Source: a virus (lineage: Duplodnaviria > Heunggongvirae > Uroviricota > Caudoviricetes). From it: a DNA stretch of 23,516 nucleotides. The stretch lies in IMG/VR virus record IMGVR_UViG_2585427772_000010; one strand, given 5' to 3'. Both the position numbers and the translations under genes were made by a program. Of the stretch, positions 5,779-22,613 are shown in pieces (positions within the stretch are counted from its first letter, which is position 1; every line of letters starts with the position of its first letter). The notes below the pieces were generated by a model. The model was not told the DNA's origin, searched no databases, and saw nothing but the letters and a program-made list of their open reading frames with translations.

Positions 5779-6107
5779 ACGTCGCCAGTTGCGAAAATTA
5801 TTTACAGGGGGCAGCGTTAAGCATCTAAAGATCTTGTTCTATGATTAGAATGTTTCCTCGTTGCACTCTCGTATAGTTATTTAATGGGAAGATGTACTCT
5901 ATATGTTGTGTTTTGGTGATAAATGAAGCCAAAGGAAGGAGATTTTGCTTGATTGATGGGCGCTCTTTGCTATACACCTTGTATTGAGAAGGAGAAGTAA
6001 TCAAGGATTAAGCTGGCTTTTGTCAAAAATCTGAAAAGCTTTTTTGACTGAATACGATAGCGAGTTGTACTATTTGCGCCCTCAAAAGTAACCGGCGGCT
6101 GGGTAAA

Positions 6108-6482
6108 ATGGGGAAGCAAGGCAAAGGCAAAGGCAACAAAAATCAGGTTAAGGTTACGTGGGCTCAGGCGTGGCGGGATGTAATGATAAGAGCCATGTCT
6201 AATGGTCAGTTGATACCTATTACCATCAGTATTATTTTAATGATTGCTGCATGGAGGTTACCAAAAACAGACTTGTCCAATTTAGCCTTCTCTATTGTTG
6301 ATGGCTTTAAGGAGCATTCCTTGGTTGGTTGGGCTATCTCGGTAATAGTGGGTTTGGCTTGGTCTGCACATGCGCGAATCATGAGGCGCTGTTTTAGTTC
6401 CGAGGCACAGAGAATCGGTAACGAGAAAACAAAGTATCAACAAAGACAGACCACTCAAGCCTTGGGTACAAGTGATAAATAG
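6108..6482 (+). CDS. Small membrane protein with two predicted TM helices (cargo gene 1)
   Basis: 124-aa ORF; lysine-rich N-terminus, hydrophobic segments LIPITISIILMIAAW and LVGWAISVIVGLAWSA; AT-rich; start uncertain (alternative ATGs at 6183 and 6195). Confidence 0.5.
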   Translation: MGKQGKGKGNKNQVKVTWAQAWRDVMIRAMSNGQLIPITISIILMIAAWRLPKTDLSNLAFSIVDGFKEHSLVGWAISVIVGLAWSAHARIMRRCFSSEAQRIGNEKTKYQQRQTTQALGTSDK

Positions 6483-6502
6483 TTGTTTATTTAGGAGTTA
6501 TT

Positions 6503-7060
6503 ATGCTGACAGTGCTGTTTTATGTGCTGTTGGGTTTAGGCGCAGCACACTTCATTTACGAGCGAATCATTTTGCCGTCCATCCGACTTCATTATAGAAA
6601 CCAATTGTTTGCGCTTCGTGATGTCGCTAGGAGGAAAATCATTGATGGAGGTTCCGATACTTCCATGCAAGCGGCAACACTTGTGCATGACTCATTGAAT
6701 AACGCTATCAATAGATTGCATTTACTCACGTTGCCAAACAAATTTCGTGCTCAAAAGCGTATGGCAGAAAACCATGCAATAAGGCAGAAAATTCGGCGTG
6801 AGATAGATGTTTTCAAACGCTGTGATGATAGAGAAGTTGTTGATGTACTGTTTAAATCCGGTCGGATACTTGAAAATGTACTGTTATTCAATAGCTTAAT
6901 GTTATTGCTTTACATGTTTCCATTTGTCCTTGCTGTATGGTTCTGTGTTAGGGTCATAAAGACAGCAAGTAGTTTAGTACAGTGGGTCAAAGGAAGAGAT
7001 TTAGAGGAAGCTATAATGCTGCTTCCTGATACTCAGGTTGAAAAGGTTGTATACGCATAA
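6503..7060 (+). CDS. Membrane protein with N- and C-terminal hydrophobic helices (cargo gene 2)
   Basis: 185-aa ORF; AGGAG 6 nt upstream of the ATG; 20-nt gap from gene 1 (operon); hydrophobic N-terminus (LTVLFYVLLGLGAAHFIY) and C-proximal helix (LLFNSLMLLLYMFPFVLAVWFCV); followed by a terminator. Confidence 0.65.
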   Translation: MLTVLFYVLLGLGAAHFIYERIILPSIRLHYRNQLFALRDVARRKIIDGGSDTSMQAATLVHDSLNNAINRLHLLTLPNKFRAQKRMAENHAIRQKIRREIDVFKRCDDREVVDVLFKSGRILENVLLFNSLMLLLYMFPFVLAVWFCVRVIKTASSLVQWVKGRDLEEAIMLLPDTQVEKVVYA

Positions 7061-7089
7061 AAATCACCCCTTAGGGGGTGATTTTTTTA
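7061..7089 (+). terminator. Rho-independent terminator
   Basis: ATCACCCC-TTAG-GGGGTGAT hairpin followed by a 7-T run immediately after the 6503-7060 stop. Confidence 0.7.
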
Positions 7090-7299
7090 CATGACTTTTG
7101 ATTAGCTGACATTGTAAATCCGCATGTATCAGATGCATTGTTTTGCATGTGGAAATGGGTGTTTTCACTGCCAGCTATCGCTACATGTAGCAAAAACACG
7201 GGCTTAATAAGAAATCATTCTGCCATAAGGCATAACTTCCCCGCGTGCTCAGGTATTGACGTCATAGATATGGATCTTTTTTAATCAAGGTATGGTATT

Positions 7300-8247
7300 A
7301 TGAAGATATTTATTAGTTGGTCAGGTCAGGACAGCCTGGAGATAGCAAAAGTATTACGGGATTGGATACCGAATGTTATTCAAGTAGCTGAGCCGTACGT
7401 ATCAGCGGAAGATATTGATAAAGGCACTCGCTGGGCGACTGATATATCAAAGGAACTTGATGACTCTTCTTATGGGATTATTTGCCTTACAAAAAATAAT
7501 ATTAATGCACCGTGGATAAATTTTGAGGCGGGGGCTTTAGGTAAAAAGGTTGATAAGAGCCGGGTTAGTCCTTTCTTGTTTAAAATTAAACCATCTGAGA
7601 TAACAGGCCCAATATTACAATTCCAGTATACTCGTTCGGATGATAAGAACGATATTTTGAAGTTGATGTTGTCAATAAATAATCAAGCAGGATTTTTGAC
7701 TGAAGAACGCTTAACTAAAGCTTTCGAGCAATGGTGGCCAAGTTTAGAGCGTGAGTTAGATAACATTCAAGATATTAACCCTGTAGATAAAGATTCCACT
7801 AAAAAAACAAAAGGTGATTCGACTTCTGAGATACAAAATCTTTCCAAAATTGTTGAAAGTTTGCTGGATATTAGCCGAACAAATCACCAATTATTGCGTG
7901 ATCCAGCATCATTATTGCCAGAAGAATATGTTAGCAAAATAATAAACAGGGAAGGGCGTAAAGAAACTGTTTTAAAAATTGTAGCTTCTGATTTATTATC
8001 CATGCATCATTCACTAATTCGTGTAAAAAGAAGATTTATTCGTCGTGGTATTGATGAAACATCTAGGAGCGAGTTAATTGAATCATTAAATAAAATGATA
8101 ATGGATTGTTCTAGAGTAATCGCTCACTTAGATAATTATTGTGGGGCTTCATCAAACAATATGTTCAATAGTGCGCTTAGATTGCGGACCAGAAATTTAA
8201 TTGACATGATGGATGAGGAGGATGCAGAACGGGATGAAATGGAATAA
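7300..8247 (+). CDS. TIR-like domain protein with uncharacterised helical C-terminal half (cargo gene 3)
   Basis: 315-aa ORF; N-terminal ~130 aa carries the bacterial TIR-like pattern (KIFISWSGQD ... GIICLTKNN ... PWINFEAG) with a glutamate at the position of the catalytic Glu of TIR NADases; C-terminal ~170 aa is charged/helical and unrecognised. The domain call is from motif reading only. Confidence 0.6.
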   Translation: MKIFISWSGQDSLEIAKVLRDWIPNVIQVAEPYVSAEDIDKGTRWATDISKELDDSSYGIICLTKNNINAPWINFEAGALGKKVDKSRVSPFLFKIKPSEITGPILQFQYTRSDDKNDILKLMLSINNQAGFLTEERLTKAFEQWWPSLERELDNIQDINPVDKDSTKKTKGDSTSEIQNLSKIVESLLDISRTNHQLLRDPASLLPEEYVSKIINREGRKETVLKIVASDLLSMHHSLIRVKRRFIRRGIDETSRSELIESLNKMIMDCSRVIAHLDNYCGASSNNMFNSALRLRTRNLIDMMDEEDAERDEME

Positions 8248-8791
8248 TCAATTTTGACTAATCATAAATAATTTTGCATATATAAACTTATAATGCCGCA
8301 GCCGCTATTTTTCAGCGGCTGTATATCGCTTATAATGGGTATGTTATTTTTATTTTGATAAAATCATTAAAATTGTCGATGTTATATGAATGCACATGTA
8401 TTATTAATGTTAGAAGATTATGCCTGCTTACGGCTATTGTGCTGAATTCAACTATGAACGCATCAGTATTAAAATCGTTCCATGAAATGTTCTTCGTCTA
8501 CAGCAGATGATGGGCAACGAAAAAATGACGCTGAGTGAGTTGGTCGGGGAGAATTGTTAGAGGTATTTATGGAGTGGTTTAATAATATCGGTCAATCCTG
8601 AGTTGCAGCATCACATAGACGATAGGGAATCTCTCCAGTCGTTCTGGAATGGCAGCGTTGAACAACAAGCACAGCGAGGCGTTAGATGCCCATCAGATTG
8701 ACACAGAGGGTTTATGAATCGCTGGGATTTACTTAGTTTGAAAAATAATATATTTATATGTTTTTGTATTGTGTTTGTTAAGGAGTTTGGA

Positions 8792-8998
8792 TTGAAAAGA
8801 AAACTGATTTGTGTTATGGCTTTTTGGGGGGCGTTGCTGGCTGGTTGTAATGAGAGTAATAAAAAAGAAGTTGAGGGTTGTATTGAAAGAGGTGTCCAAT
8901 ATTTTATAGAGATTGGTTCTTACCCTAAATTAAGTGATGGGCGTGATGCTGTAAAAGTTGCTACTGAACGTTGTAATAGAACAATAACGGCTTTCTGA
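8792..8998 (+). CDS. Small predicted lipoprotein (cargo gene 4)
   Basis: Track ORF 8714-8998; preferred start is the in-frame TTG at 8792, preceded by AAGGAG (8780-8785), giving a classical lipoprotein signal peptide (KRK, hydrophobic core, lipobox LLAG-C); about 49-aa mature protein with three further Cys. Confidence 0.5.
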   Translation: MKRKLICVMAFWGALLAGCNESNKKEVEGCIERGVQYFIEIGSYPKLSDGRDAVKVATERCNRTITAF

Positions 8999-9000
8999 TA

Positions 9001-9918
9001 ATGGATTATACGAGCTATATAATAGGACAGCTTCAGGTTGAGGATATTATTGATGCAATTAAAGGCGTTAATAATACTAATGTCATAAAAGATTATGTGC
9101 TGCCTGTAGTATTACCAATTATATCTTCTGTGCTGAGTTACTTTATTGCAACTAGGTTGTTTTATCGGCAGGAGGACCTTAAAGCACAAAGAAGAAAGGT
9201 AAGCGTTGTAAATAAATGTATTTATGACTACTTTTCTGCAATGACAACGTTGTTGCAAATTAAAGGGAATTATTATGGTGGGGTAAGTATAAGTGAAAAT
9301 CCTATCGAGAGGGCTTTAGCTTTTCCTGTTGTGGTTTTTTCTGGTGCTCCTCTATCATCAGATTTAAGTGAGTTGGCCTGTATATTGAGTCAAAAGGGAG
9401 TAGGGAATAATAGAGAGCCAGCAAAGACTACTAACTGGGGGGATGCTTTTGCTGTTAGTGATATAGCAAGAAGGTTTAACAGCCTATTGGCTGCATTAAA
9501 TGTTAGGAATGATTTTGATGACACCTATAGAGGAATGATTATTGAATCAACAGGTTCACCTTTGCCTACGATGCGTTTTAAAAATGATGATATTGTTAAT
9601 GCTATAGGTAGTAATAAGGCAGCTTATTACATTGATATTACTGAGCAAATAATGATTATGATAGATGTTTTGTTGCTTGATATTAATCTGTTGCTCAAAG
9701 AGTTGCCATTGTATGCTGAATCGCTGTTTGACAAAAGAGTAATGCAAGAAGATTCAGGGATTCTTAAATTCAATGATTTGCACGAACGTTTTCCTCTACT
9801 TATGAAACCTGTAACGCCACCTTCGATTAAACTCATGTCTGATTATTTGGGGTACAGTGAAGATGAGATCTTACGACGCTATCCATACCCGTTCTTTAAT
9901 ATGCATGATTGTGAATGA
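9001..9918 (+). CDS. Uncharacterised 305-aa protein with one N-proximal TM helix (cargo gene 5)
   Basis: ATG 2 nt after the lipoprotein stop (coupled); hydrophobic segment VLPVVLPIISSVLSYFIATRLF; AT-rich; no family recognised. Confidence 0.7.
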   Translation: MDYTSYIIGQLQVEDIIDAIKGVNNTNVIKDYVLPVVLPIISSVLSYFIATRLFYRQEDLKAQRRKVSVVNKCIYDYFSAMTTLLQIKGNYYGGVSISENPIERALAFPVVVFSGAPLSSDLSELACILSQKGVGNNREPAKTTNWGDAFAVSDIARRFNSLLAALNVRNDFDDTYRGMIIESTGSPLPTMRFKNDDIVNAIGSNKAAYYIDITEQIMIMIDVLLLDINLLLKELPLYAESLFDKRVMQEDSGILKFNDLHERFPLLMKPVTPPSIKLMSDYLGYSEDEILRRYPYPFFNMHDCE

Positions 9919-10021
9919 ATGTGCATATGTCAGAAGCCGTTTTTATTGTCAGTTATCGTCAGTGCTGGCGCGCTCTTGGAGTGTTCATGCAACTGCATTA
10001 AAACCGCCCCACGAAGCGGGC

Positions 10022-10040
10022 GGGCGAGGCGGGGAAAGCA
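10022..10040. other. cos site (19-nt cohesive-end sequence of P2-type phages)
   Basis: Exact GGCGAGGCGGGGAAAGCAC, which I recall as the P2/P4 cohesive end, in the expected position between the old/tin locus and Q. Confidence 0.6.
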
Positions 10041-10171
10041 CTGCGCGCTGGCGGGGGTGATGATTGTCTGAGCGCGTCGTGATGGCGTTTAGATTGTGCG
10101 CCGGGGCGTTGGTGTGTCTGCGGGGTGTTTTGTACAGTGGCGAGCGTGTGAGGGCGTGATGACGGGGGTGT

Positions 10172-10198: not shown

Positions 10199-11233
10199 TC
10201 AGCCGTTGTCAGTGTCCAGTGAGTAGTTTTTAAAGCGGATGACCTCCTGACCGAGCCAGCCGTTTATTTCCCGAATCCTGTCCTGTAACGGGATAAGTTC
10301 ATTGCGGACAAAGACCTTTGCCACTTTCTCAATATCGCCCAGCGACCCGACGTTTTCCGGCTTGCCACCCATCAACTGAAAGGGGATGCGGTGCGCGTCC
10401 AGCAGGTCAGCGGCGCTGGCTTTTTTGATATTAAAAAAATCGTCCTTCGTGGCCACTTCACTGAGCGGGATAATTTTAATGCCGTCGGCTTTTCCCTGTG
10501 GGGCATAGAGAAACAGGTTTTTAAAGTTATTGCGGCCTTTCGACTTCACCATGTTTTCGCGGAGCATTTCGATATCGTTGCGATCCTGCACGGCATCAGT
10601 GACGTACATGATGTATCCGGCATGTGCGCCGTTTTCGTAATACTTGCGGCGGAACAGCGTGGCCGACTCATTCAGCCAGGCAGAGTTAAGGGCGCTGAGA
10701 TATTCCGGCAGACCGTACAGCTCCTGATTAATATCCGGCTCCAGCAGGTGAAACACGGAGCCGGGCGCGAAAGGTGTCGGCTCGTTGAAGGACGGCACCC
10801 ACCAGTAAACATCCTCCTCCACGCCACGGCGGGGATATTTTGCCGGGGAGGGTTCCAGTCTGATGACCTTACCGGTGGTGCTGTAACGCTTTTCCAGAAA
10901 CGCATTACCGAATACCAGAAAATCCAGCACAAAGCGGCTGAAATCCTGCTGAGAAAGCCACGGGTGTGGGATAAACGTTGAGGCCAGAATGTTACGTTTG
11001 ACGTAAATCGGTGAGCTGTGATGCACGGCAGCACGCAGGCTTTTTGCCAGACCGGTAAAGCTGACTGGTGGCTCATACCATCTGCCGTTACTGATGCACT
11101 CGACGTAATCCAGAATGTCACGGCGGTCGAGTACCGGCACCGGCTCACCAAAGGTGAATGCCTCCATTTTCGGGGCGCTGGCGGTCATTTTTTTTGCCGC
11201 AGGTTGCGGTGTTTTCCCTTTTTTCTTGCTCAT
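10199..11233 (-). CDS. Q: Portal protein Q
   Basis: 344-aa ORF, same length and position as P2 Q; start ATG overlaps the P stop (TGATG). Confidence 0.9.
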   Translation of the reverse strand: MSKKKGKTPQPAAKKMTASAPKMEAFTFGEPVPVLDRRDILDYVECISNGRWYEPPVSFTGLAKSLRAAVHHSSPIYVKRNILASTFIPHPWLSQQDFSRFVLDFLVFGNAFLEKRYSTTGKVIRLEPSPAKYPRRGVEEDVYWWVPSFNEPTPFAPGSVFHLLEPDINQELYGLPEYLSALNSAWLNESATLFRRKYYENGAHAGYIMYVTDAVQDRNDIEMLRENMVKSKGRNNFKNLFLYAPQGKADGIKIIPLSEVATKDDFFNIKKASAADLLDAHRIPFQLMGGKPENVGSLGDIEKVAKVFVRNELIPLQDRIREINGWLGQEVIRFKNYSLDTDNG

Positions 11234-11795
11234 CAGTAAAACTCCAGAATGGTGGATGTCAGCGGGGTGCTGATACCGGCGGTGAGTGGCTCATTTAACA
11301 GGGCGTGCATGGTCGCCCAGGCGAGGTCGGCGTGGCTGGCTTCCTCGCTACGGCTGGCCTCATAGGTGGCGCTGCGTCCGCTGCTGGTCATGGTCTTGCG
11401 GATAGCCATGAACGAGCTGGTGATGTCGGTGGCGCTGCGTCCGCTGCTGGTCATGGTCTTGCGGATAGCCATGAACGAGCTGGTGATGTCGGTGGCGCTG
11501 ACGTCATATTCCAGACAGCCACGGCGGATGACGTCTTTTGCCTTGAGCACCATTGCGGTTTTCATTTCCGGCGTGTAGCGGATATCGCGTGCGGCGGGAT
11601 AGAACGAGCGCACGAGCTGGAACACGCCGACACCGAGGCCGGTGGCATCAATTCCGATGTATTCGACGTTGTATTTTTCGGTGAGTTTGCGGATGGATTC
11701 CGCCTGAGTGGCAAAGTCCATGCCTTTCCACTGGTGACGCTCAAGTATTCTGAATTTACCTCCGGCCACCACCGGCGGTGCCAGCACCACGCATC
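11233..11795 (-). pseudogene. P: Terminase large subunit P, C-terminal fragment only, carrying an in-frame 63-bp tandem duplication
   Basis: Only ~185 codons remain of a gene that is ~590 codons in P2; the reading frame runs into the K fragment on the other strand; the upstream promoter and N-terminal part are absent. Confidence 0.8.
11368..11493. repeat. Perfect 63-bp tandem duplication (2 copies) inside the P remnant
   Basis: 11368-11430 and 11431-11493 are identical; the 10-mer GGTGGCGCTG precedes each copy and a partial third GGCGCTG follows; encodes a duplicated 21-aa segment (SATDITSSFMAIRKTMTSSGR). Confidence 0.9.
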
Positions 11796-11797
11796 CG

Positions 11798-12250
11798 GCG
11801 CTGGCCGTGTCCGAAGGGACGGCGAATCATCCGCTGACGAAAAACCGGGGCTATGACGTGATAGTCACCGGACTGGACGGAAAGCCGGAAATTTTCACCG
11901 ACTACAGTGACCACCCGTTCGCACATGGTCGACCGGCGAAGGTGTTTAACCGTCGCGGTGAAAAATCCACGGCCTCCGGTCGCTATCAGCAGCTTTACCT
12001 GTTCTGGCCGCATTACCGCAAACAGCTTGCCCTGCCGGATTTCAGTCCGTTGTCACAGGACAGGCTCGCCATTCAGTTGATCCGCGAACGCGGTGCACTG
12101 GATGACATCCGGGCGGGACGCATTGAGCGCGCCATTTCACGCTGTCGCAATATCTGGGCGTCCCTGCCGGGTGCCGGTTACGGTCAGCGTGAGCATCCAC
12201 TGGAAAAACTGGTCACCGTCTGGCGTACCGCCGGCGGCGTACCGGCTTAA
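11798..12250 (+). pseudogene. K: Endolysin K (lambda R-like lytic transglycosylase), 5'-truncated
   Basis: Translation (SEGTANHPLTKNRGYDVIV ... IWASLPGAGYGQ) aligns with lambda R from about its residue 17 onward; the catalytic-Glu motif SEGT is retained but the N-terminus, RBS and upstream holin gene are missing. Confidence 0.75.
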
Positions 12251-12264
12251 ACGGAGTAAACACC

Positions 12265-12690
12265 ATGAAGAAATTATCCCTTTCACTGATGCTGAATGTG
12301 CCGCTGGCGCTGATGCTGGCACTGTCCCTGATTTACCCGCAGAGCGTGGCCGTCAGTTTTGTCGCCGCCTGGGCGATTCTGGCGACGGTTATCTGTGTGG
12401 TTGCCGGTGGTGTCGGCGTGTATGCCACTGAGTATGTGCTGGAACGCTACGGGCGGGAGCTGCCGCCGGAATCGCTGGCCGTGAAGATTGTCACGTCGCT
12501 GTTTTTGCAGCCGGTGCCGTGGCGCAGACGGGCAGTAGCTCTGGTGGTGATGGTGGCGACGTTTATCTCGCTGGTCGCTGCCGGGTGGATTTTTACCGCG
12601 CTGATTTATCTTGTGGCGTCGCTGTTTTTCCGGCTGATACGTAAAGCCTGCCGTCAGCGTTTTGAGGGGCGGGAACCATGTCAAAGCTGA
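12265..12690 (+). CDS. lysA: LysA (membrane protein of the P2 lysis cassette)
   Basis: 141-aa strongly hydrophobic multi-TM protein directly after K, as in P2. Confidence 0.8.
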   Translation: MKKLSLSLMLNVPLALMLALSLIYPQSVAVSFVAAWAILATVICVVAGGVGVYATEYVLERYGRELPPESLAVKIVTSLFLQPVPWRRRAVALVVMVATFISLVAAGWIFTALIYLVASLFFRLIRKACRQRFEGREPCQS

Positions 12691-13103
12691 TGATTGTGCT
12701 GGTTGTGCTGTTATCGCTGGCGGTGGCGGGGCTGTTTCTGGTGAAGCATGAAAACGCCAGCCTGCGCGCCTCGCTGGACAGGGCGAACAACGTCGCCAGT
12801 GAACAGCAGACGACCATCACCATGCTGCAAAATCAGCTTCATGTTGCCATCACCAGGGCAGACAAAAACGAGCTGGCGCAGGTGGCACTGCGTCAGGAAC
12901 TGGAGAACGCCGCGAAGCGTGAAGCACAGCGCGAGAAAACCATCACGAGGTTACTTAATGAAAACGAAGATTTTCGCCGCTGGTATGGCGCTGACCTGCC
13001 TGATGCTGTGCGCCGGTTGCACCAGCGCCCCGCCTGCACCGACGCCAGTGATTGTCGCCAACGCCTGCCCGAAAGTGAGCCTTTGCCCGATGCCGGGCAG
13101 TGA
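12678..13103 (+). CDS. lysB: LysB, Rz-like inner-membrane spanin
   Basis: 141-aa ORF with N-terminal TM helix followed by coiled-coil-like region; overlaps lysA stop. Confidence 0.8.
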   Translation: MSKLMIVLVVLLSLAVAGLFLVKHENASLRASLDRANNVASEQQTTITMLQNQLHVAITRADKNELAQVALRQELENAAKREAQREKTITRLLNENEDFRRWYGADLPDAVRRLHQRPACTDASDCRQRLPESEPLPDAGQ

Positions 13104-13248
13104 CCCGGAGACGAACGGCGATTTAAGTGCCGATATCCGGCAGCTTGAGAACGCGCTGGCACGTTGTGCCAGCCAGGTAAAAATGATTAAACACTGTCAG
13201 GACGAAAACGATGCTCAAACCCGACAGCCTGCGCAGGGCGCTGACTGA
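12958..13248 (+). CDS. lysC: LysC, Rz1-like outer-membrane lipoprotein spanin, embedded in +1 frame of lysB
   Basis: Internal ATG at 12958 of track ORF 12748-13248 gives MKTKIFAAGMALTCLMLCAGC... with lipobox LCAG-C and a proline-rich mature region; starts inside lysB and extends beyond it. Confidence 0.7.
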   Translation: MKTKIFAAGMALTCLMLCAGCTSAPPAPTPVIVANACPKVSLCPMPGSDPETNGDLSADIRQLENALARCASQVKMIKHCQDENDAQTRQPAQGAD

Positions 13249-13678
13249 TGCCGTCACGGTGCTGAAAACTAACCCCGATATGCTGCGGATATTCGTGGAT
13301 AACGGGAGTATTGCCTCCACACTGGCGGCGTCGTTGTCATTCGAAAAGCGTTACACGCTCAATGTCATTGTGACCGACTTTACCGGTGATTTTGACCTGC
13401 TCATCGTGCCGGTGCTGGCGTGGCTGCGGGAAAATCAGCCCGACATCATGACCACCGACGAAGGCCAGAAAAAGGGCTTCACGTTTTATGCAGACATCAA
13501 CAATGACAGCAGCTTTGATATCAGTATCAGCCTGATGCTGACCGAGCGCACGCTGGTCAGTGAGGTTGACGGTGCGCTGCATGTGAAGAATATCCCGGAA
13601 CCTCCGCCGCCGGAGCCAGTCAATCGCCCGATGGAGCTTTATATCAATGGTGAACTGGTGAGCAAGTGGGATGAATGA
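13211..13678 (+). CDS. R: Tail completion protein R
   Basis: 155-aa ORF, same length and position as P2 R. Confidence 0.85.
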   Translation: MLKPDSLRRALTDAVTVLKTNPDMLRIFVDNGSIASTLAASLSFEKRYTLNVIVTDFTGDFDLLIVPVLAWLRENQPDIMTTDEGQKKGFTFYADINNDSSFDISISLMLTERTLVSEVDGALHVKNIPEPPPPEPVNRPMELYINGELVSKWDE

Positions 13679-14123
13679 GTTTAAGCGTTTTGAAGACCGA
13701 CTGACCGGACTGATTGAATCGCTGTCACCGTCTGGGCGTCGGCGACTGAGTGCAGAACTGGCGAAACGTCTGCGGCAGAGTCAGCAGCGTCGGGTGATGG
13801 CACAGAAAGCTCCGGACGGCACACCCTACGCACCACGCCAGCAGCAGAGCGCCAGAAAAAAGACCGGTCGCGTTAAGCGAAAAATGTTTGCGAAACTTAT
13901 CACCAGTCGTTTTTTGCATATCCGCGCCAGCCCTGAACAGGCATCAATGGAGTTTTACGGCGGGAAGTCACCGAAAATCGCCAGTGTGCATCAGTTCGGT
14001 CTGTCGGAAGAAACCCGGAAAGACGGTAAGAAAATTGATTATCCGGCGCGTCCTCTGCTCGGCTTTACCGGTGAGGATGTGCAGATGATTGAAGAGATTA
14101 TCCTGGCTCACCTTGAGCGTTAG
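13671..14123 (+). CDS. S: Tail completion protein S
   Basis: 150-aa ORF overlapping the R stop, same length and position as P2 S. Confidence 0.85.
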   Translation: MNEFKRFEDRLTGLIESLSPSGRRRLSAELAKRLRQSQQRRVMAQKAPDGTPYAPRQQQSARKKTGRVKRKMFAKLITSRFLHIRASPEQASMEFYGGKSPKIASVHQFGLSEETRKDGKKIDYPARPLLGFTGEDVQMIEEIILAHLER

Positions 14124-14194
14124 TTTTATCCAGACAGAGGCTGATGCGCAATTAAACATTGAGCGGCCATGCTGGTCGCTCAATGTTTAGAGGT

Positions 14195-14980
14195 TTATGA
14201 GTGATTTTTATTTGATGCTTTGTATTCTAAAACCTTCTTATTGGCGTAAAAGAATTTTGTATATGACAGGAATATAACCAGACCTGAAGTGAAATAGACG
14301 AGGGATAGTATTAATAATGCTTTTTTGCGACTGTTATTATCTTTAATCTCCAGGCTTAACCATTCGGAGTCCTCCTCGTTTAGCTGTAAGAGCTTATTGC
14401 AGGCGATTTCAGGAAGTGTGTCTTTTATAAATACGTTTTGCAGTCTCTTGCAATCGGCAAGGCTATAAGTTTTATTAAATTCAACTGCTTTATTTTTGAA
14501 GGATAAAAGAACTTTGTCACTATAAACATAGTACATCATGTTTTTATATGGTATGCCTATGGCATCCCTTACTATAACGGATTGTTCGTTGTGTATGTAA
14601 CATGCGAGGAGAATGTAAAAAATACTGGCCAGAATTACAATTATTGTTTTAATTATGTGTGGTGGTTTTGTTATGTCACCCCAGATGCGAGTAAGGAAAA
14701 AATACGATGTTTTTAGTTTTCCATCAATCAGTCCCTGCTGTATCATTCTCACATTTTCAATGCCTGATACATTGATTCCGTTAATTATTTTAAATAGTTG
14801 AATGTCGCGCCACTCGCGGTCAAGTCTTTTTAATTTTTTGTCTGAATATCCAAAATTGAAATAATGTGCAATAAGCCTCATAAGGTTACTTTTACCAAAG
14901 CTAAAAAATGCTAATACTGCAAAGCTACAAAGGAAAAAAACGATTAGCCCCCACACATTAGTCACATTATAGCTGACCAT
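14195..14980 (-). CDS. AT-rich multi-pass membrane protein at the orf30 position, antisense to the late genes
   Basis: 261-aa ORF; AAGGAGAG 5 nt upstream of the ATG on the minus strand; about three hydrophobic helices; composition visibly more AT-rich than flanking S and V. Confidence 0.7.
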   Translation of the reverse strand: MVSYNVTNVWGLIVFFLCSFAVLAFFSFGKSNLMRLIAHYFNFGYSDKKLKRLDREWRDIQLFKIINGINVSGIENVRMIQQGLIDGKLKTSYFFLTRIWGDITKPPHIIKTIIVILASIFYILLACYIHNEQSVIVRDAIGIPYKNMMYYVYSDKVLLSFKNKAVEFNKTYSLADCKRLQNVFIKDTLPEIACNKLLQLNEEDSEWLSLEIKDNNSRKKALLILSLVYFTSGLVIFLSYTKFFYANKKVLEYKASNKNHS

Positions 14981-14989
14981 TACGCTCTC

Positions 14990-15060
14990 CTTGAATGTTG
15001 TCTGGTAGTTCTACAAATGAATCCAGATAGCATAACTTTTATATATTGTGCAATCTCACA
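14990..15060 (+). promoter_or_regulatory. Candidate late promoter upstream of V (P_V)
   Basis: Imperfect dyad TTGTCTGGTAGTTCTACAA about 50-60 bp upstream of V and an AT-rich -10-like TATATAT; P2 has an Ogr-dependent late promoter at this position. Spacing does not exactly match the TGT-N12-ACA consensus as I recall it. Confidence 0.3.
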
Positions 15061-15063
15061 TGC

Positions 15064-15699
15064 ATGAACACTCTCGCAAATATTCAGGAACTCGCGCGCG
15101 CACTGCGCAACATGATTCGCACCGGCATTATCGTCGAAACCGACCTTAACGCCGGTCGCTGCCGCGTGCAGACCGGCGGCATGTGCACCGACTGGCTTCA
15201 GTGGCTGACCCATCGCGCCGGTCGTTCGCGCACATGGTGGGCACCTTCCGTGGGGGAACAGGTGCTGATTCTGTCCGTGGGCGGTGAACTCGACACGGCG
15301 TTTGTTCTGCCGGGGATTTATTCCGGCGATAATCCCGCGCCGTCTGCGTCGGCGGATGCCCTGCATATCCGTTTCCCTGACGGGGCGGTGATTGAGTATG
15401 AACCCGAAACCAGTGCGCTCACGGTAAGCGGAATTAAAACGGCCAGCGTGACGGCTTCCGGTTCTGTTACTGCCACTGTGCCGGTGGTCATGGTGAAAGC
15501 GTCAACCCGCATCACCCTGGACACACCGGAGGTGGTCTGCACCAACAGGCTGATTACCGGCACGCTGGAAGTGCAGAAGGGCGGGACGATGCGCGGCAAC
15601 ATTGAACACACCGGCGGTGAACTCTCATCAAACGGTAAGGTACTGCATACCCATAAACACCCCGGCGACAGCGGCGGCACAACCGGGAGTCCTCTATGA
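15064..15699 (+). CDS. V: Baseplate spike/assembly protein V
   Basis: Start at internal ATG 15064 (MNTLANIQ...) of track ORF 15046-15699; 211 aa, as in P2 V. Confidence 0.85.
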   Translation: MNTLANIQELARALRNMIRTGIIVETDLNAGRCRVQTGGMCTDWLQWLTHRAGRSRTWWAPSVGEQVLILSVGGELDTAFVLPGIYSGDNPAPSASADALHIRFPDGAVIEYEPETSALTVSGIKTASVTASGSVTATVPVVMVKASTRITLDTPEVVCTNRLITGTLEVQKGGTMRGNIEHTGGELSSNGKVLHTHKHPGDSGGTTGSPL

Positions 15700-16043
15700 C
15701 AGCGCGTTATCTCGGAATGAATCGCAGTGATGGCCTGACGGTCACTGACCTTGAGCATATCAGCCAGAGTATCGGCGATATCCTGCGCACACCGGTCGGC
15801 TCACGGGTGATGCGCCGTGATTACGGCTCGTTGCTGGCGTCAATGATTGACCAGCCGCAGACCCCGGCGCTTGAGTTGCAGATTAAGGTCGCCTGTTACA
15901 TGGCGGTGCTGAAATGGGAACCCCGCGTCACCCTGTCATCCGTCACCACGGCGCGCAGTTTTGACGGGCGAATGACGGTCACGTTAACCGGTCAGCACAA
16001 CGACACCGGTCAGCCACTTTCGTTAACCATCCCTGTGAGTTGA
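15696..16043 (+). CDS. W: Baseplate protein W (gp25-like)
   Basis: 115-aa ORF overlapping the V stop, same length and position as P2 W. Confidence 0.85.
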   Translation: MTARYLGMNRSDGLTVTDLEHISQSIGDILRTPVGSRVMRRDYGSLLASMIDQPQTPALELQIKVACYMAVLKWEPRVTLSSVTTARSFDGRMTVTLTGQHNDTGQPLSLTIPVS

Positions 16044-16047
16044 AACC

Positions 16048-16956
16048 ATGCCGATTATCGACCTGAACCAGCTACCCGCACCGGATGTGGTCGAGGAGCT
16101 GGACTTTGAAACCATTCTTGCCGAACGCAAGGCGACACTGATTTCCCTTTACCCGGAAGACCAGCAGGAGGTGGTCGCCCGTACCCTGACGCTGGAATCG
16201 GAGCCTCTCGTCAAACTGCTGGAAGAAAATGCTTATCGTGAGCTTATCTGGCGTCAGCGTGTGAATGAGGCCGCACGGGCGGTGATGCTGGCCTGTGCCG
16301 CCGGTAATGACCTTGATGTGATTGGTGCCAATTACAACACCACACGCCTGATTATCATCCCGGCAGATGATTCGACCATCCCGCCGACACCGGCAGTGAT
16401 GGAATCTGACACCGATTATCGTCTGCGTATTCAGCAGGCGTTTGAAGGTTTAAGCGTTGCCGGGTCGGTGGGAGCCTATCAGTATCATGGTCGCAGTGCC
16501 GACGGGCGTGTCGCGGATATCTCTGTCACCAGTCCGTCTCCGGCCTGTGTCACTATCTCCGTGCTGTCCCGAGAAAATAACGGTGTCGCATCCGAAGACC
16601 TGCTGGCTGTGGTGCGTAACGCTCTTAATGGCGAGGACGTCAGGCCGGTGGCTGACCGTGTGACCGTGCAGTCTGCCGCCATTGTTGAATACCAGATAAA
16701 CGCCACGCTGTATCTTTACCCTGGTCCAGAAAGCGAACCCATCCGCGCCGCCGCCGTGAAAAAACTGGAAGCGTACATCACGGCACAGCACCGGCTGGGG
16801 CGCGACATCCGTCTGTCTGCCATTTATGCCGCTTTGCATGTGGAAGGCGTGCAGCGTGTCGAACTGACTGCACCGCTGGCTGACATCGTGCTCAACAGTA
16901 CGCAGGCGTCTTTCTGCACCGAATACAGCGTCGTGACCGGAGGCTCGGATGAGTGA
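16048..16956 (+). CDS. J: Baseplate protein J
   Basis: 302-aa ORF, same length and position as P2 J. Confidence 0.9.
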   Translation: MPIIDLNQLPAPDVVEELDFETILAERKATLISLYPEDQQEVVARTLTLESEPLVKLLEENAYRELIWRQRVNEAARAVMLACAAGNDLDVIGANYNTTRLIIIPADDSTIPPTPAVMESDTDYRLRIQQAFEGLSVAGSVGAYQYHGRSADGRVADISVTSPSPACVTISVLSRENNGVASEDLLAVVRNALNGEDVRPVADRVTVQSAAIVEYQINATLYLYPGPESEPIRAAAVKKLEAYITAQHRLGRDIRLSAIYAALHVEGVQRVELTAPLADIVLNSTQASFCTEYSVVTGGSDE

Positions 16957-17479
16957 TTCGCGACTGCTGCCGACCGGCTCATCACCGCTTGAGGTCGCCG
17001 CCGCAAAAGCCTGTGCGGAAATTGAAAAAACACCGGTCAGTATTCGTGAGCTGTGGAACCCGGACTCCTGTCCGGCAAATCTGCTGCCGTGGCTGGCGTG
17101 GGCGTTTTCGGTCGACAGGTGGGATGAAAAGTGGCCGGAAGCGACAAAACGCGCCGTTATCCGCGATGCCTATTTCATCCACTGTCATAAAGGCACTATC
17201 GGCGCAATCCGACGCGTGGTGGAGCCGCTCGGCTATCTCATCAACGTGACGGAGTGGTGGGAAAACAGTGACCCGCCCGGCACCTTCCGGCTTGATATTG
17301 GTGTACTGGAAAGCGGTATCACAGAGGCAATGTATCAGGAAATGGAACGGCTGATTGCCGATGCCAAACCTGCAAGCCGCCACCTTATTGGCCTGAACAT
17401 TACCCGGGACATTCCCGGCTATCTGTTCGCCGGTGGTGTGGCTTACGACGGCGATGTAATTACGGTTTACCCCGGATAA
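16949..17479 (+). CDS. I: Baseplate protein I
   Basis: 176-aa ORF overlapping the J stop, same length and position as P2 I. Confidence 0.85.
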   Translation: MSDSRLLPTGSSPLEVAAAKACAEIEKTPVSIRELWNPDSCPANLLPWLAWAFSVDRWDEKWPEATKRAVIRDAYFIHCHKGTIGAIRRVVEPLGYLINVTEWWENSDPPGTFRLDIGVLESGITEAMYQEMERLIADAKPASRHLIGLNITRDIPGYLFAGGVAYDGDVITVYPG

Positions 17480-17489
17480 GTGAGGAATA

Positions 17490-19535
17490 ATGAGCATAAA
17501 ATTCAGAACCGTTATCACCACTGCCGGTGCAGCAAAGCTGGCAGCGGCAACCGCGCCGGGAGGGCGGAAGGTCAACATTACCACGATGGCCGTCGGGGAT
17601 GGCGGTGGTAAATTGCCTGTCCCGGATGCCGGACAGACCGGGCTTATCCATGAAGTCTGGCGACATGCGCTGAACAAAATCAGCCAGGACAAACGAAACA
17701 GTAATTATATTATCGCCGAGCTGGTTATTCCGCCGGAGGTGGGCGGTTTCTGGATGCGTGAGCTTGGCCTGTACGATGATGCGGGAACATTAATTGCCGT
17801 GGCGAACATGGCCGAAAGTTATAAGCCAGCTCTTGCCGAAGGCTCAGGGCGTTCGCAGACCTGTCGCATGGTCATCATCGTCAGCAGTGTGGCCTCAGTG
17901 GAGCTGACCATTGACACCACAACGGTGATGGCGACTCAGGATTACGTTGATGACAAAATTGCAGAGCATGAACAGTCACGACGTCACCAGGACGCCTCGC
18001 TGACCGCAAAAGGTTTTACTCAGTTAAGCAATGCGACCAACAGCACGTCTGAAACACTGGCCGCAACGCCGAAAGCGGTTAAGGCCGCATATGACCTTGC
18101 TAACGGGAAATATACCGCACAGGACGCTACCACAGCGCGAAAAGGTCTTGTCCAGCTAAGTAGTGCGACCAACAGCATATCTGAAACGCTCGCCGCAACA
18201 CCAAAAGCCGTTAAGACGGTAATGGATGAAACGAACAAGAAAGCGCCATTAAACAGCCCTGCACTGACCGGAACGCCAACGACGCCAACTGCGCGACAGG
18301 GAACGAATAATACTCAGATCGCAAACACGGCTTTCGTTATGGCCGCGATTGCCGCCCTTGTAGACTCGTCGCCTGACGCACTGAATACGCTGAACGAGCT
18401 GGCGGCGGCGCTGGGCAATGACCCGAATTTTGCTACCACCATGACTAATGCGCTTGCGGGTAAGCAACCGAAAGATGCCACTTTGACGGCGCTGGCGGGG
18501 CTTGCTACTGCGGCAGACAGGTTTCCGTATTTTACGGGGAATGATGTTGCCAGCCTGGCGACCCTGACAAAAGTCGGGCGGGATATTCTGGCTAAATCGA
18601 CCGTTGCCGCTGTTATCGAATATCTCGGTTTACAGGAAACGGTAAACCGAGCCGGGAACGCCGTGCAAAAAAATGGCGATACTTTGTCCGGCGGGCTTAC
18701 TTTTGAAAACGACTCAATCCTTGCCTGGATTCGAAATACTGACTGGGCGAAGATTGGATTTAAAAATGATGCCGATGGTGACACTGATTCATATATGTGG
18801 TTTGAAACAGGTGACAACGGCAATGAATATTTCAAATGGAGAAGTCGCCAGAGCACCACAACAAAAGACCTGATGAATCTTAAATGGGATGCTCTGTATG
18901 TTCTTGTTAAAGCCCTTTTCAGCAGTGAAGTAAAAATATCTACAGTCAATGCACTGAGGATATTTAATTCATCTTTTGGGGCTATTTTTCGCCGTTCTGA
19001 AGAAAACCTGTATATCATTCCTACACGAGAAAATGAGGGTGAAAATGGAGATATTGGGCCATTAAGGCCATTCGGCATCAACTTAAGAACAGGAGTTGTG
19101 TCTGTTGGTAATGGTGCCAGGATTGATGGCGGGCTGGCACTTGGCACGAATAACGCGTTGGGTGGGAACTCTATTGTTCTTGGTGATAACGACACCGGAT
19201 TTAAACAAAATGGCGATGGTAATCTGGATGTTTATGCTAATAACGTCCATGTTATGCGCTTTGTTTCCGGAAGCATTCAAAGTAATAAGACCATAAATAT
19301 TACGGGGCGTGTTAATCCCTCGGATTACGGTAACTTTGATTCCCGCTATGTGAGAGATATCAGACTTGGCACACGTGTTGTCCAGACCATGCAGAAAGGG
19401 GTGATGTATGAGAAAGCAGGGCACGTAATTACCGGGCTTGGTATTGTCGGTGAAGTCGATGGTGATGACCCCGCAGTATTCAGGCCAATACAAAAATACA
19501 TCAATGGCACATGGTATAACGTCGCACAGGTGTAA
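17490..19535 (+). CDS. H: Tail fibre protein H
   Basis: 681-aa ORF with conserved N-terminal baseplate-attachment region, internal fibre repeats (SNATNSTSETLAATPKAVKA / SSATNSISETLAATPKAVKT) and a distinct C-terminal receptor-binding portion. Confidence 0.9.
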   Translation: MSIKFRTVITTAGAAKLAAATAPGGRKVNITTMAVGDGGGKLPVPDAGQTGLIHEVWRHALNKISQDKRNSNYIIAELVIPPEVGGFWMRELGLYDDAGTLIAVANMAESYKPALAEGSGRSQTCRMVIIVSSVASVELTIDTTTVMATQDYVDDKIAEHEQSRRHQDASLTAKGFTQLSNATNSTSETLAATPKAVKAAYDLANGKYTAQDATTARKGLVQLSSATNSISETLAATPKAVKTVMDETNKKAPLNSPALTGTPTTPTARQGTNNTQIANTAFVMAAIAALVDSSPDALNTLNELAAALGNDPNFATTMTNALAGKQPKDATLTALAGLATAADRFPYFTGNDVASLATLTKVGRDILAKSTVAAVIEYLGLQETVNRAGNAVQKNGDTLSGGLTFENDSILAWIRNTDWAKIGFKNDADGDTDSYMWFETGDNGNEYFKWRSRQSTTTKDLMNLKWDALYVLVKALFSSEVKISTVNALRIFNSSFGAIFRRSEENLYIIPTRENEGENGDIGPLRPFGINLRTGVVSVGNGARIDGGLALGTNNALGGNSIVLGDNDTGFKQNGDGNLDVYANNVHVMRFVSGSIQSNKTINITGRVNPSDYGNFDSRYVRDIRLGTRVVQTMQKGVMYEKAGHVITGLGIVGEVDGDDPAVFRPIQKYINGTWYNVAQV

Positions 19536-20066: not shown

Positions 20067-20287
20067 GTTGTATAAGCTCTGGTGTGAGATTACATATCTA
20101 TGGCACAGAGTAAAGCCTAATCTGACAGGCCGCTCTGTGTCTGGAGTAGATTTTAGTAAAGCATTATTTTATTAGTGCAAATTCTAATCAATACATTTTA
20201 TGTATATGATATCCTACGGACTTTAATGACTTGGTTTAGGCTAACCAGATAACACTGAAGGAATATTTTTGATAATTAAGGTGCGGT

Positions 20288-20881
20288 ATGTTTACTAAGC
20301 GACGATTAAAAAATATTAACTGGGAGGCAAGTTCAGTGATTCTTGCTATGGTTCTCTTTGTTGGAAATATATTTTATACAAATCATCGTGATGATATAAG
20401 CATGGAGGCTGAGAGGGACAGTATCAGAACAATGTTTGCATATGAAATCGCTAATAACCATCGCGCTCTCACTTTTCTTGATAAAACGAGACATATTGGC
20501 TTTGACGAAAATTCGGAGCATTTTGTTGGCGAGCCTTTTGCCATTAATGTCAAATCATTAGGGGGACCTCGCTTACAGATTGCATTAAACCAGACTGATA
20601 AAGTGTTTAAATCCTACTTCGGCGAATTAAGTAAGCTTGATAAAGAGGATGTTACTCTTCTTATGGACTATTACCATGAGCAAAGCATCCTGCTGGAGCG
20701 TGTAAAATCTACGTTACAGAAGATGAAAAGTGGTAATGATATTAAAGTTGATATTGATGGTTGCTTATTAGAAGAACACTTCATGAATGAGCTTAATCTT
20801 TCTAATATTTTGCTTAAACGCTATAGCTATTTATTATCACAACACGCTAAGGAACATAAAACAAAAGATTTACATAATTGA
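20288..20881 (+). CDS. AT-rich membrane-anchored protein at the Z/fun position
   Basis: 197-aa ORF; AAGGTG 5 nt upstream of the ATG; single N-terminal TM helix (SSVILAMVLFVGNIFY); flanked by AT-rich intergenic DNA between G and the FI remnant. Confidence 0.65.
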   Translation: MFTKRRLKNINWEASSVILAMVLFVGNIFYTNHRDDISMEAERDSIRTMFAYEIANNHRALTFLDKTRHIGFDENSEHFVGEPFAINVKSLGGPRLQIALNQTDKVFKSYFGELSKLDKEDVTLLMDYYHEQSILLERVKSTLQKMKSGNDIKVDIDGCLLEEHFMNELNLSNILLKRYSYLLSQHAKEHKTKDLHN

Positions 20882-21090
20882 TAATCTGCTAATGGTTATT
20901 CATGGGGTAACTATGTTTTATATGTAATCCAGCCCAGATGAATTATTGATTCTGGATAATAACCGCAGAGCGGCATATACCCTGACAGGCAAATGTCCGC
21001 TTCTTGCTCAAAGCAGACTGTCAGATTTGATAACTTTTGGGCTATGTAAACTGTCAGTCGGAAAATGAGTGTGTACAAATCAGGACAGGC

Positions 21091-21127
21091 GGGGGGAATT
21101 GCCCCCTTTTTTTTTTTTTTTTTTTTT
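21091..21127 (+). terminator. Strong rho-independent terminator with a 21-T tract
   Basis: GGGGG-AATTG-CCCCC hairpin (21092-21106) followed by 21 consecutive T (21107-21127). Confidence 0.7.
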
Positions 21128-21212: not shown

Positions 21213-21326
21213 ATGAGTGACTATCATCACGGCGTGCAGGTGCTGGAGATTAACGACGGCACCCGCGTCATTTCCACCGTATCCACAGCCATTGTCGGCA
21301 TGGTCTGCACGGCTAGCCTCCCGTAA
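21213..21326 (+). pseudogene. FI: Tail sheath FI, 5' stub (37 codons then stop)
   Basis: [35 protein letters not shown] matches the start of the P2 sheath protein as I recall it, then leaves frame and hits TAA at 21324-21326. Confidence 0.7.
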
Positions 21327-22077
21327 CAGGCTGGAAGCCAGTGTCGCTCCGTCACTGGCCGGAATTAAAATCCCGCACATCGACCAGTCGCAGGAGTCCG
21401 ATGCGAAATTCCTGACCCGTCTTGCTGAACGCAACGGCGGTGAGGTGTCGGTAAAAATGGGAAAACTGCTGTTTCTCAAAGCGGGGCAGGGGGGGACGGT
21501 CAGCGGTAAAAAAATCCCGCAGATTACCATCACCCGCAGCGACGGCGACCGTCATCATTTTGCGATTGCTGACCGTGGAGCCTACACAGGCGTAACGGCA
21601 AAGTGGTTACACACCAAAGACCCGAAGCCGCAAAAGCAGAAGGTAAAACTGAAACGCAAAAAGAAAGAGAAACACCTGCGCGCACTGGAGCACCCGAAAG
21701 CGAAACCGGTCACGCAGAAGAAAGAGCCAAAAGTACCGGAAGCGCGCGAAGGTGAATACATGGCCGGTGAGGCTGACAACGTTTTTGCCCTGACCACGGT
21801 ATATGCCACGAAAGCACAGGCCATGCGCGCCGCTCAGGCGAAGTGGGATAAACTGCAACGGGGTGTTGCGGAGTTCTCCATCAGCCTGGCTACTGGTCGG
21901 GCAGATATTTACACGGAAACGCCGGTCAGAGTGTCAGGCTTTAAGCGCGTCATAGACGAGCAGGACTGGACAATCACTAAGGTGACACATTTTCTGAATA
22001 ATAGCGGCTTCACGACGTCCCTGGAGCTTGAGGTCAGGCTTTCTGATGTGGAGTACGAAACAGAAGATGATGAGTGA
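21318..22077 (+). pseudogene. D: Tail protein D, 3' fragment (about 250 codons) fused to the FI stub
   Basis: Frame of track ORF 21217-22077 encodes a lysine-rich linker and C-terminal region ending ...LELEVRLSDVEYETEDDE, directly upstream of ogr as in P2; no native start or N-terminal part. Confidence 0.75.
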
Positions 22078-22415: not shown

Positions 22416-22505
22416 GGTCGATGTGGACGCTATGTGGACAGCGTTTGATATAAATCCATTTATATCATCAGGTTAGGTGCTTTTTTGTGACACCATCCCT
22501 GTCTT

Positions 22506-22532
22506 CCCCCACATGATGTGGGGGTTTTTTTT
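22506..22532 (+). terminator. Rho-independent terminator hairpin in the phage-host junction region
   Basis: CCCCCACA-TGA-TGTGGGGG followed by 8 T. Confidence 0.5.
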
Positions 22533-22613
22533 ATCCTCAATTTGCCTGCTGCTTAATGCATTGCAGATGATTTGCTTCCGTTATACTACCGTCAGTTGAT
22601 AGCGGGAGTATTT

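Follow-up and report, generated by a model that had tools for sequence, protein, structure and literature searches.

E. coli K-12 has a D'-ogr remnant of phage P2, and E. coli B has a defective P2-like prophage. In P2 itself, genes P and O are separated by an intergenic region that contains the divergent late promoter pair PP and PO. Decay by internal deletions, with loss of morphogenesis and lysis genes and retention of immunity and accessory genes, has been described for cryptic, defective or "grounded" E. coli prophages (PMC6379469), and the pool of defective prophages in strain O157 Sakai is an example of such decayed prophages (PMC2669165). Rousset et al. 2022 (PMC9122126) showed that P2-like phages carry anti-phage systems in a hotspot between gpA and cos, and that the TIR/TM system of one viable member, P2_AC1 (hereafter AC1), gives protection from lambda, LF82_P8 and P2-like relatives.

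Here, we analyzed a window of 23,516 nucleotides from the viral record IMGVR_UViG_2585427772_000010. It contains a P2-family prophage, bounded by int on the minus strand (1-1011) and by an att core (22489-22535) with the E. coli gene fieF beyond it, and both gene-set homology and synteny (BLAST and tblastn against P2 and AC1) placed it among the P2-like (Peduovirus) prophages. The window was collinear from end to end with AC1 (NC_070903, a viable Peduovirus), at 94-99.8% identity, except for two deletions and a 63-bp duplication in P that is private to the window and lacking in AC1. While AC1 forms plaques and has both a 5,319-bp block from P to K and a 5,438-bp block from FI to D, neither block is found in the window. 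The gene set of a functional phage is accordingly incomplete, with O, N, M, L, X, Y, FII, E, T and U absent and P, K, FI and D truncated. We class the element as a defective P2-like prophage, a result of a thoroughly known kind of event, and it should be labeled as such.

The junction between terminase P and endolysin K

The earlier note, made from the letters of the sequence, had described a deletion scar at 11780-11810, with the P frame on the minus strand and the K frame on the plus strand meeting at 11790-11800. BLAST and alignments against P2 and AC1 bore out the scar within the wider interval, and placed the meeting point at 11800-11803, about 5 to 10 bp to the right of the narrower one. 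On the P side, window 11428-11803 matched positions 32208-31833 of P2 (NC_070904, L001), within gene P, at 99.7% identity. On the K side, window 11800-18083 matched P2 26517-20234, beginning inside gene K, at 96.0% identity. With E = 0 for both, the abutting of the two P2 blocks at the junction is not due to chance. Mapping against complete P2-family genomes, as the note had proposed, gave the exact breakpoints: in base-level three-way alignments with P2, the match to the P parent ended at 11803 and that to the K parent began at 11800, and the result was identical when AC1 was taken as the parent. The two sides have a 4-bp microhomology in common, GCTG at 11800-11803, with no filler DNA (0 bp). 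In the parents, P has one copy of this motif, inside codon 422/423, and K has one at codons 16/17. The sequence missing between these points, as judged by BLAST, amounted to 5,319 bp whether counted against P2 or against AC1.

The junction alignments revealed neither an insertion sequence nor a transposon end at the P/K breakpoints, and likewise no recombinase site and no long repeat. The flanks consisted of phage sequence only, and the parental flanks had no extended similarity to each other. The junction thus has the anatomy of a deletion scar, in which collinear flanks abut, a short identity is kept once and no mobile-element signature is present.

On the P2 map, the lost block comprises codons 1-422 of P, the P-O intergenic region, genes O, N, M, L, X and Y, and codons 1-16 of K. 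The loss of a block of several kilobases holding the promoter region and these six genes had been claimed before, together with the condition that finding O, N, M, L and Y elsewhere in the same prophage would overturn it. When P2 proteins were searched against the window by tblastn, P was recovered as residues 423-590 and K as residues 17-165, and no match to O, N, M, L, X or Y was obtained anywhere in the window, so that the claim stands.

The terminase remnant (11233..11803, minus strand; tblastn, Pfam and translation) consists of codons 423-590 of the large terminase P plus a duplication of 21 codons. It retains part of the Terminase_6C nuclease domain (PF17289, RNaseH-like; profile positions 21-135 of 155) and lacks both the ATPase domain and a start codon. 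The earlier statement that the element cannot make capsids or package DNA agrees with this gene content, since the scaffold, capsid, small terminase and head-completion genes are absent and P is without its N-terminal 422 residues. The endolysin remnant (11801..12250, plus strand; tblastn and translation) comprises codons 17-165 of K. Its loss of the start codon, ribosome-binding site and holin partner, also noted earlier, was confirmed, with codons 1-16 gone and Y absent. The first canonical in-frame start is a GTG at 11807 (V19), which would give a product of 147 amino acids, and no Shine-Dalgarno-like sequence was found upstream of it. The remnant still encodes the SEGT motif with its glutamate, which we take to be the catalytic residue (Glu19 of lambda R), and P2 K aligns to the lambda lysozyme (1AM7/3D3D) across the conserved LDMLA-SEGT stretch. 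Pfam assigned no family to the K remnant, and the precomputed Pfam table has none for full-length 165-aa K genes either.

Although the note had spoken of the scar as fusing P and K, this holds only in the sense that the 5'-truncated K abuts the 3' end of P. The remnants lie head to head, both truncated at the 5' end and diverging from the junction, and because both genes are transcribed away from the deleted block, no P-K fusion protein is possible. It also follows from this divergent arrangement that the deletion removed both 5' gene ends together with PP and PO, whose P-O interval was located from the P2 annotation (NC_070904). On the minus strand, the portal gene Q (10199..11233; 344 aa) is intact (tblastn over 344/344 aa, 99.4% identity) and is probably promoterless, given the place of PP on the P2 map. 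On the plus strand downstream of K, lysA, lysB, lysC, R and S (12265..14123) are intact ORFs with full-length tblastn matches, and the position of PO in the deleted P-O interval predicts that they are deprived of this late promoter. No sigma-70-like promoter was predicted in window 11000-12400. Q, the two remnants, lysA, lysB, lysC, R and S would then be silent, although transcription might still run on from the plus-strand cargo genes upstream and cover the K remnant through S. A scan for the Ogr-type dyad TGT-N12-ACA was uninformative, with 3 matches against 5.8 expected.

Head genes are absent here while baseplate and fiber genes remain, and this superficially resembles the native gene order of a distinct P2-derived element, a tailocin or a phage satellite, in which nothing would have been deleted. 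We give this reading hardly any credence. Both genes at the border are truncated within their coding sequence (P at codon 423, K at codon 17); a tailocin would need the sheath, tube and tape measure, which have been lost as well; and, judged from the collinearity with AC1, there are no P4-type genes.

Carriers of the junction and the quality of the source assembly

The exact junction 36-mer was present in at least eight other loci (L003-L009 and L021), among isolate assemblies, SRA re-assemblies and one metagenome. One of these loci, L008, was 100% identical to the window. The other seven were about 99.9% identical to it, and came from NCBI assemblies GCA_907163395.1 (L003), GCA_002512175.1 (L009) and GCA_000714345.1 (L021), Logan assemblies of ERR4504328 (L004), ERR13951939 (L005) and ERR13116674 (L007), and the ENA metagenome ERZ28566128 (L006). 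The truncated K product of 147 aa was indexed in 60 blocks of a public assembly collection, and portal, P remnant and K remnant stood in the same order at 5/5 distinct places among the matches listed. Public records list the exact remnant proteins by names like "lysozyme [Escherichia coli 6-175-07_S3_C1]". A host in Shigella or another genus was considered, but the exact-protein matches were to E. coli isolates (6-175-07_S3_C1/C2).

By contrast with these assemblies, the specific junction was unmatched in the complete-genome and phage collections searched: it was found in 0/5,426 complete RefSeq E. coli genomes and in 0/50,697 phage records, every match in the former stopping, and in the latter ending, at window 11803. 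The 36-mer was likewise not found among GTDB species-representative genomes, nor a 24-mer of the junction among JGI metagenome contigs, and these two results say little, as neither collection covers within-species diversity.

The earlier note had raised the possibility that the junction is an assembly artefact. Such an artefact could arise, for instance, if two P2-like prophages were collapsed or mis-scaffolded and P and K regions were wrongly joined. The E. coli genomes with any match had a median of 2 P2-like places, which would offer an opportunity for such an error, and the source assembly has probable consensus errors elsewhere (T-to-G changes in G runs, a poly-T run and the private 63-bp duplication). 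Yet the identical 36-bp junction recurs in at least seven other assemblies, made from different samples with different pipelines and with flanks 99.9% identical, and no Ns or ambiguous bases are present at the junction. An artefact is therefore very improbable, and the claim of a deletion withstood this check in independent assemblies. The sequences of the carriers rather indicate that the scar is real and confined to one rather uncommon E. coli lineage. Their near-identity points to vertical inheritance, and the carriers whose loci reach the chromosome are all at the same fieF site.

The 63-bp duplication in the P remnant has a different standing. Tandem Repeats Finder (TRF) reported it as an in-frame tandem duplication of 2 x 63 bp (11365..11490), with copies at 11365-11427 and 11428-11490 that are identical at 63/63 positions and bounded by the 10-bp repeat GGTGGCGCTG. 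It was absent from seven carriers (L003-L007, L009 and L021), and present only in L008, in a form identical to that in the window. The window was 100% identical over 20,555 bp to contig JORM01000046.1 of GCA_000713185.1, and the sister assembly GCA_000714345.1, of the same project to judge by the names in its records, is without the duplication. Slippage could have given rise to the duplication, or it may be an error of assembly; the latter is suggested because other private differences of the source assembly, judged against the other carriers and, where matchable, against AC1 and P2, look like consensus error. These differences include T-to-G changes inside G runs at 7533, 9175, 10055, 10834, 10847 and 10852, and a poly-T run of about 22 bases within 21094-21127, with the smear at 21105-21127, where all other carriers have mixed sequence. 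Both look like consensus or sequencing errors in the source assembly. The deletion junction at 11800-11803 is unaffected by this doubt.

A second deletion and the element that remains

A second deletion junction was located at 21314..21317 by BLAST, tblastn, alignment and translation. There, codons 1-35 of the sheath gene FI are joined out of frame to codons 127-387 of D. The 5,438 bp missing in comparison with AC1 comprise FII, E/E', T and U, together with the remainder of FI and the 5' portion of D. The two sides of this junction share AGC as microhomology, which would extend to TAGC with a parent that carried T at 21314. On the plus strand, the stub of FI (21213-21317) is followed by the remnant of D, the two together spanning 21213..22077 (tblastn, Pfam and translation). 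The D frame is open from 21217/21292 to 22077 and matches PF05954 at profile positions 106-304 of 305. Both scars were present in every carrier locus that reaches the second site (L003, L008, L009 and L021). None of the loci recovered had just one of the deletions: the 286-aa ORF of the D remnant had no match when looked up, and the 261-aa version gave only sister assemblies with both scars. We propose that the deletion from FI to D was an independent event of the same type as that from P to K.

Taken together, we consider it very probable that the P-K junction stems from a single spontaneous deletion of 5,319 bp, which arose in an integrated AC1-like prophage of E. coli by illegitimate recombination at GCTG, was accompanied by a second deletion, and left a disarmed prophage that is inherited vertically. 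The ends would have been joined by illegitimate, microhomology-mediated recombination at GCTG along a RecA-independent route, either replication slippage or microhomology-mediated end joining, to judge from the scar alone. As a 4-bp match is short, being expected by chance in about 1 in 256 alignments, it argues weakly for this mechanism, and a blunt or other end-joining route may have been used instead. The first deletion took the head genes O, N and L, the small terminase gene M, X and the holin gene Y, and to judge from gene content, it should have left a prophage unable to assemble capsids, to cut and package DNA, or to lyse the cell in a programmed way. The second, at about 21314-21317, took the sheath, tube and tape-measure genes, which predicts that no tail can be built. 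Because of both scars, the element is expected to produce neither heads nor tails. What remains is an element of about 22.6 kb that keeps genes for immunity, integration/excision and replication, as well as cos and the 2TM-1TM-TIR cassette, and that appears to have been passed on vertically, in its disarmed state, within one E. coli lineage. In our assessment the prophage has decayed in an ordinary way, through illegitimate recombination, and the result has become fixed in a single lineage.

Apart from the two scars, the retained ORFs were of full length by tblastn, including int, C, cox, A, Q, lysA, lysB, lysC, R, S, orf30, V, W, J, I, H, G and ogr; B is also kept. The tail-fiber protein H (17490-19535) had only 70% identity to P2 H, with a divergent C-terminal part, and this is usual host-range mosaicism. 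In the slot between the tail-fiber assembly gene G and FI (20140-20995), which holds Z/fun in P2, the window has an ORF of 197 aa (20288-20881) without any Pfam or PADLOC match. Several Peduovirus genomes match this slot at about 98% identity, and in L003 an ORF of 181 aa was called there instead.

The prophage is integrated into the chromosome at cpxP/fieF. The attR core (22489..22535) was recognized by its 47-bp identity to the attL side of the intact prophage L019, attL itself lying outside the window, and the fieF flank on the right was 99.9% identical to E. coli (all 5,426 complete genomes). Read directly from the sequence, an intact P2-type cohesive-end sequence, the 19-mer GGCGAGGCGGGGAAAGCAC, lies at 10023..10041, where the linear records of P2 and AC1 end exactly. 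This intact cos adjoins the promoterless portal gene, and cutting and packaging in trans would be possible in principle.

The hotspot between gpA and cos (5781-10022) was 99.6% identical to that of AC1. It carries an anti-phage cargo of three adjacent plus-strand genes (6108..8247), at 6108-6482, 6503-7060 and 7300-8247, and two further ORFs at 8714-8998 and 9001-9918. PADLOC matched the three genes to component models over their full lengths (2TM-TIR, 2e-58; 1TM-TIR, 3e-75; TIR-TM, 2e-118), and Pfam reported TIR_2 within the cassette, which identifies it, at the level of sequence, as a predicted 2TM-1TM-TIR system. The two downstream ORFs (94 aa and 305 aa) had no Pfam or PADLOC match.

Could the deletions have produced, or been selected to produce, a mobilizable element of 22.6 kb that bears cos and a defense cassette and is packaged in trans by a P2-like helper, either co-resident or superinfecting? 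Several features would suit such an element: the cos 19-mer is intact, as are int, cox, C, B, A, ogr and the defense cargo, none of the retained ORFs is degraded, and the element persists in many samples. Against this, no satellite-specific gene has been gained, the window being strictly collinear with AC1. Both junctions cut ORFs at arbitrary positions and FI and D are joined out of frame, while the carriers, with about 99.9% identity and, in those that reach the chromosome, a shared fieF site, fit vertical inheritance. Moreover, the element has 68% of the length of the P2 genome, and it is doubtful whether a P2-size head would package it stably. We therefore regard this origin as unlikely. 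A related idea, that the doubly deleted element is a nascent helper-dependent hitchhiker which is excised, replicated and packaged in trans by a superinfecting P2-like phage, has in our view a small chance of being right; if it were true, the defense cassette would spread with the element, and a first step from helper phage toward satellite would be observable. Ordinary decay remains the reading that we prefer.

Comparison with known prophages, tailocins and satellites

An R-type tailocin is not what the window encodes, as its sheath gene is reduced to 35 codons and tube, tape measure, U and holin are absent. Nor does it resemble a P4-like satellite, a kind of element that has its own alpha primase for replication, helper-manipulation genes (sid, psu, delta, epsilon) and no structural genes, and with which it shares only cos; the window is collinear with AC1, has no extra genes and keeps the portal, baseplate and fiber genes. 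The intact prophages of E. coli 14EC020 (NZ_CP024138) and D7 (NZ_CP010150) have the same cpxP/fieF site, att core and gene order as the window. They differ from it in being complete, at about 34 kb, and in carrying a different hotspot cargo.

Other P2-like prophages are also truncated in P. In five of them (L002, L011, L012, L014 and L015), the 3' part of P beside Q is kept and joined to a distant part of the prophage. Their breakpoints lie at P2 31751-32059, compared with 31833 in the window, and the partners of P in them include S, int, lysB, a full-length lysozyme gene beside a tail-sheath remnant, and others. As both breakpoints and partners differ, the comparison of sequences indicates that these truncations are events separate from that in the window. 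Several P-side breakpoints fell within about 80 bp, and a deletion hotspot in P was considered and rejected. The loci had been retrieved through an identical 163-aa ORF, which can be produced only from that short interval, and because of this ascertainment bias, the clustering is no evidence for a hotspot. Independent damage to P was seen in many other E. coli P2-like prophages, including these five as well as L010, L013, L016 and L017. In some, P was called as two separate ORFs, and its length differed from that in P2 by -8 or +4 bp or its alignment had a local break; the P remnants in some public records are named "oxidoreductase, partial".

For annotation, the comparison means that the "lysozyme" of 147/149 aa and the "terminase-like" protein or "oxidoreductase, partial" of 163/184 aa are remnants that border a deletion, and not independent genes. 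The P-K scar raises no new principle. It does give a clean view of an early stage of prophage disarmament, in which heads, packaging, holin and tail have been lost and the anti-phage cassette, immunity and cos have been kept. This is in keeping with the idea that hosts retain what is useful in the cargo of P2-like phages (Rousset et al. 2022, PMC9122126) and shed the dangerous or costly parts. With the cryptic and defective prophages of E. coli, the element in the window shares decay by internal deletion and the retention of immunity and accessory genes. It differs from the cryptic ones in the stage that it has reached, which is an early one, with two clean deletions only and every other ORF intact.
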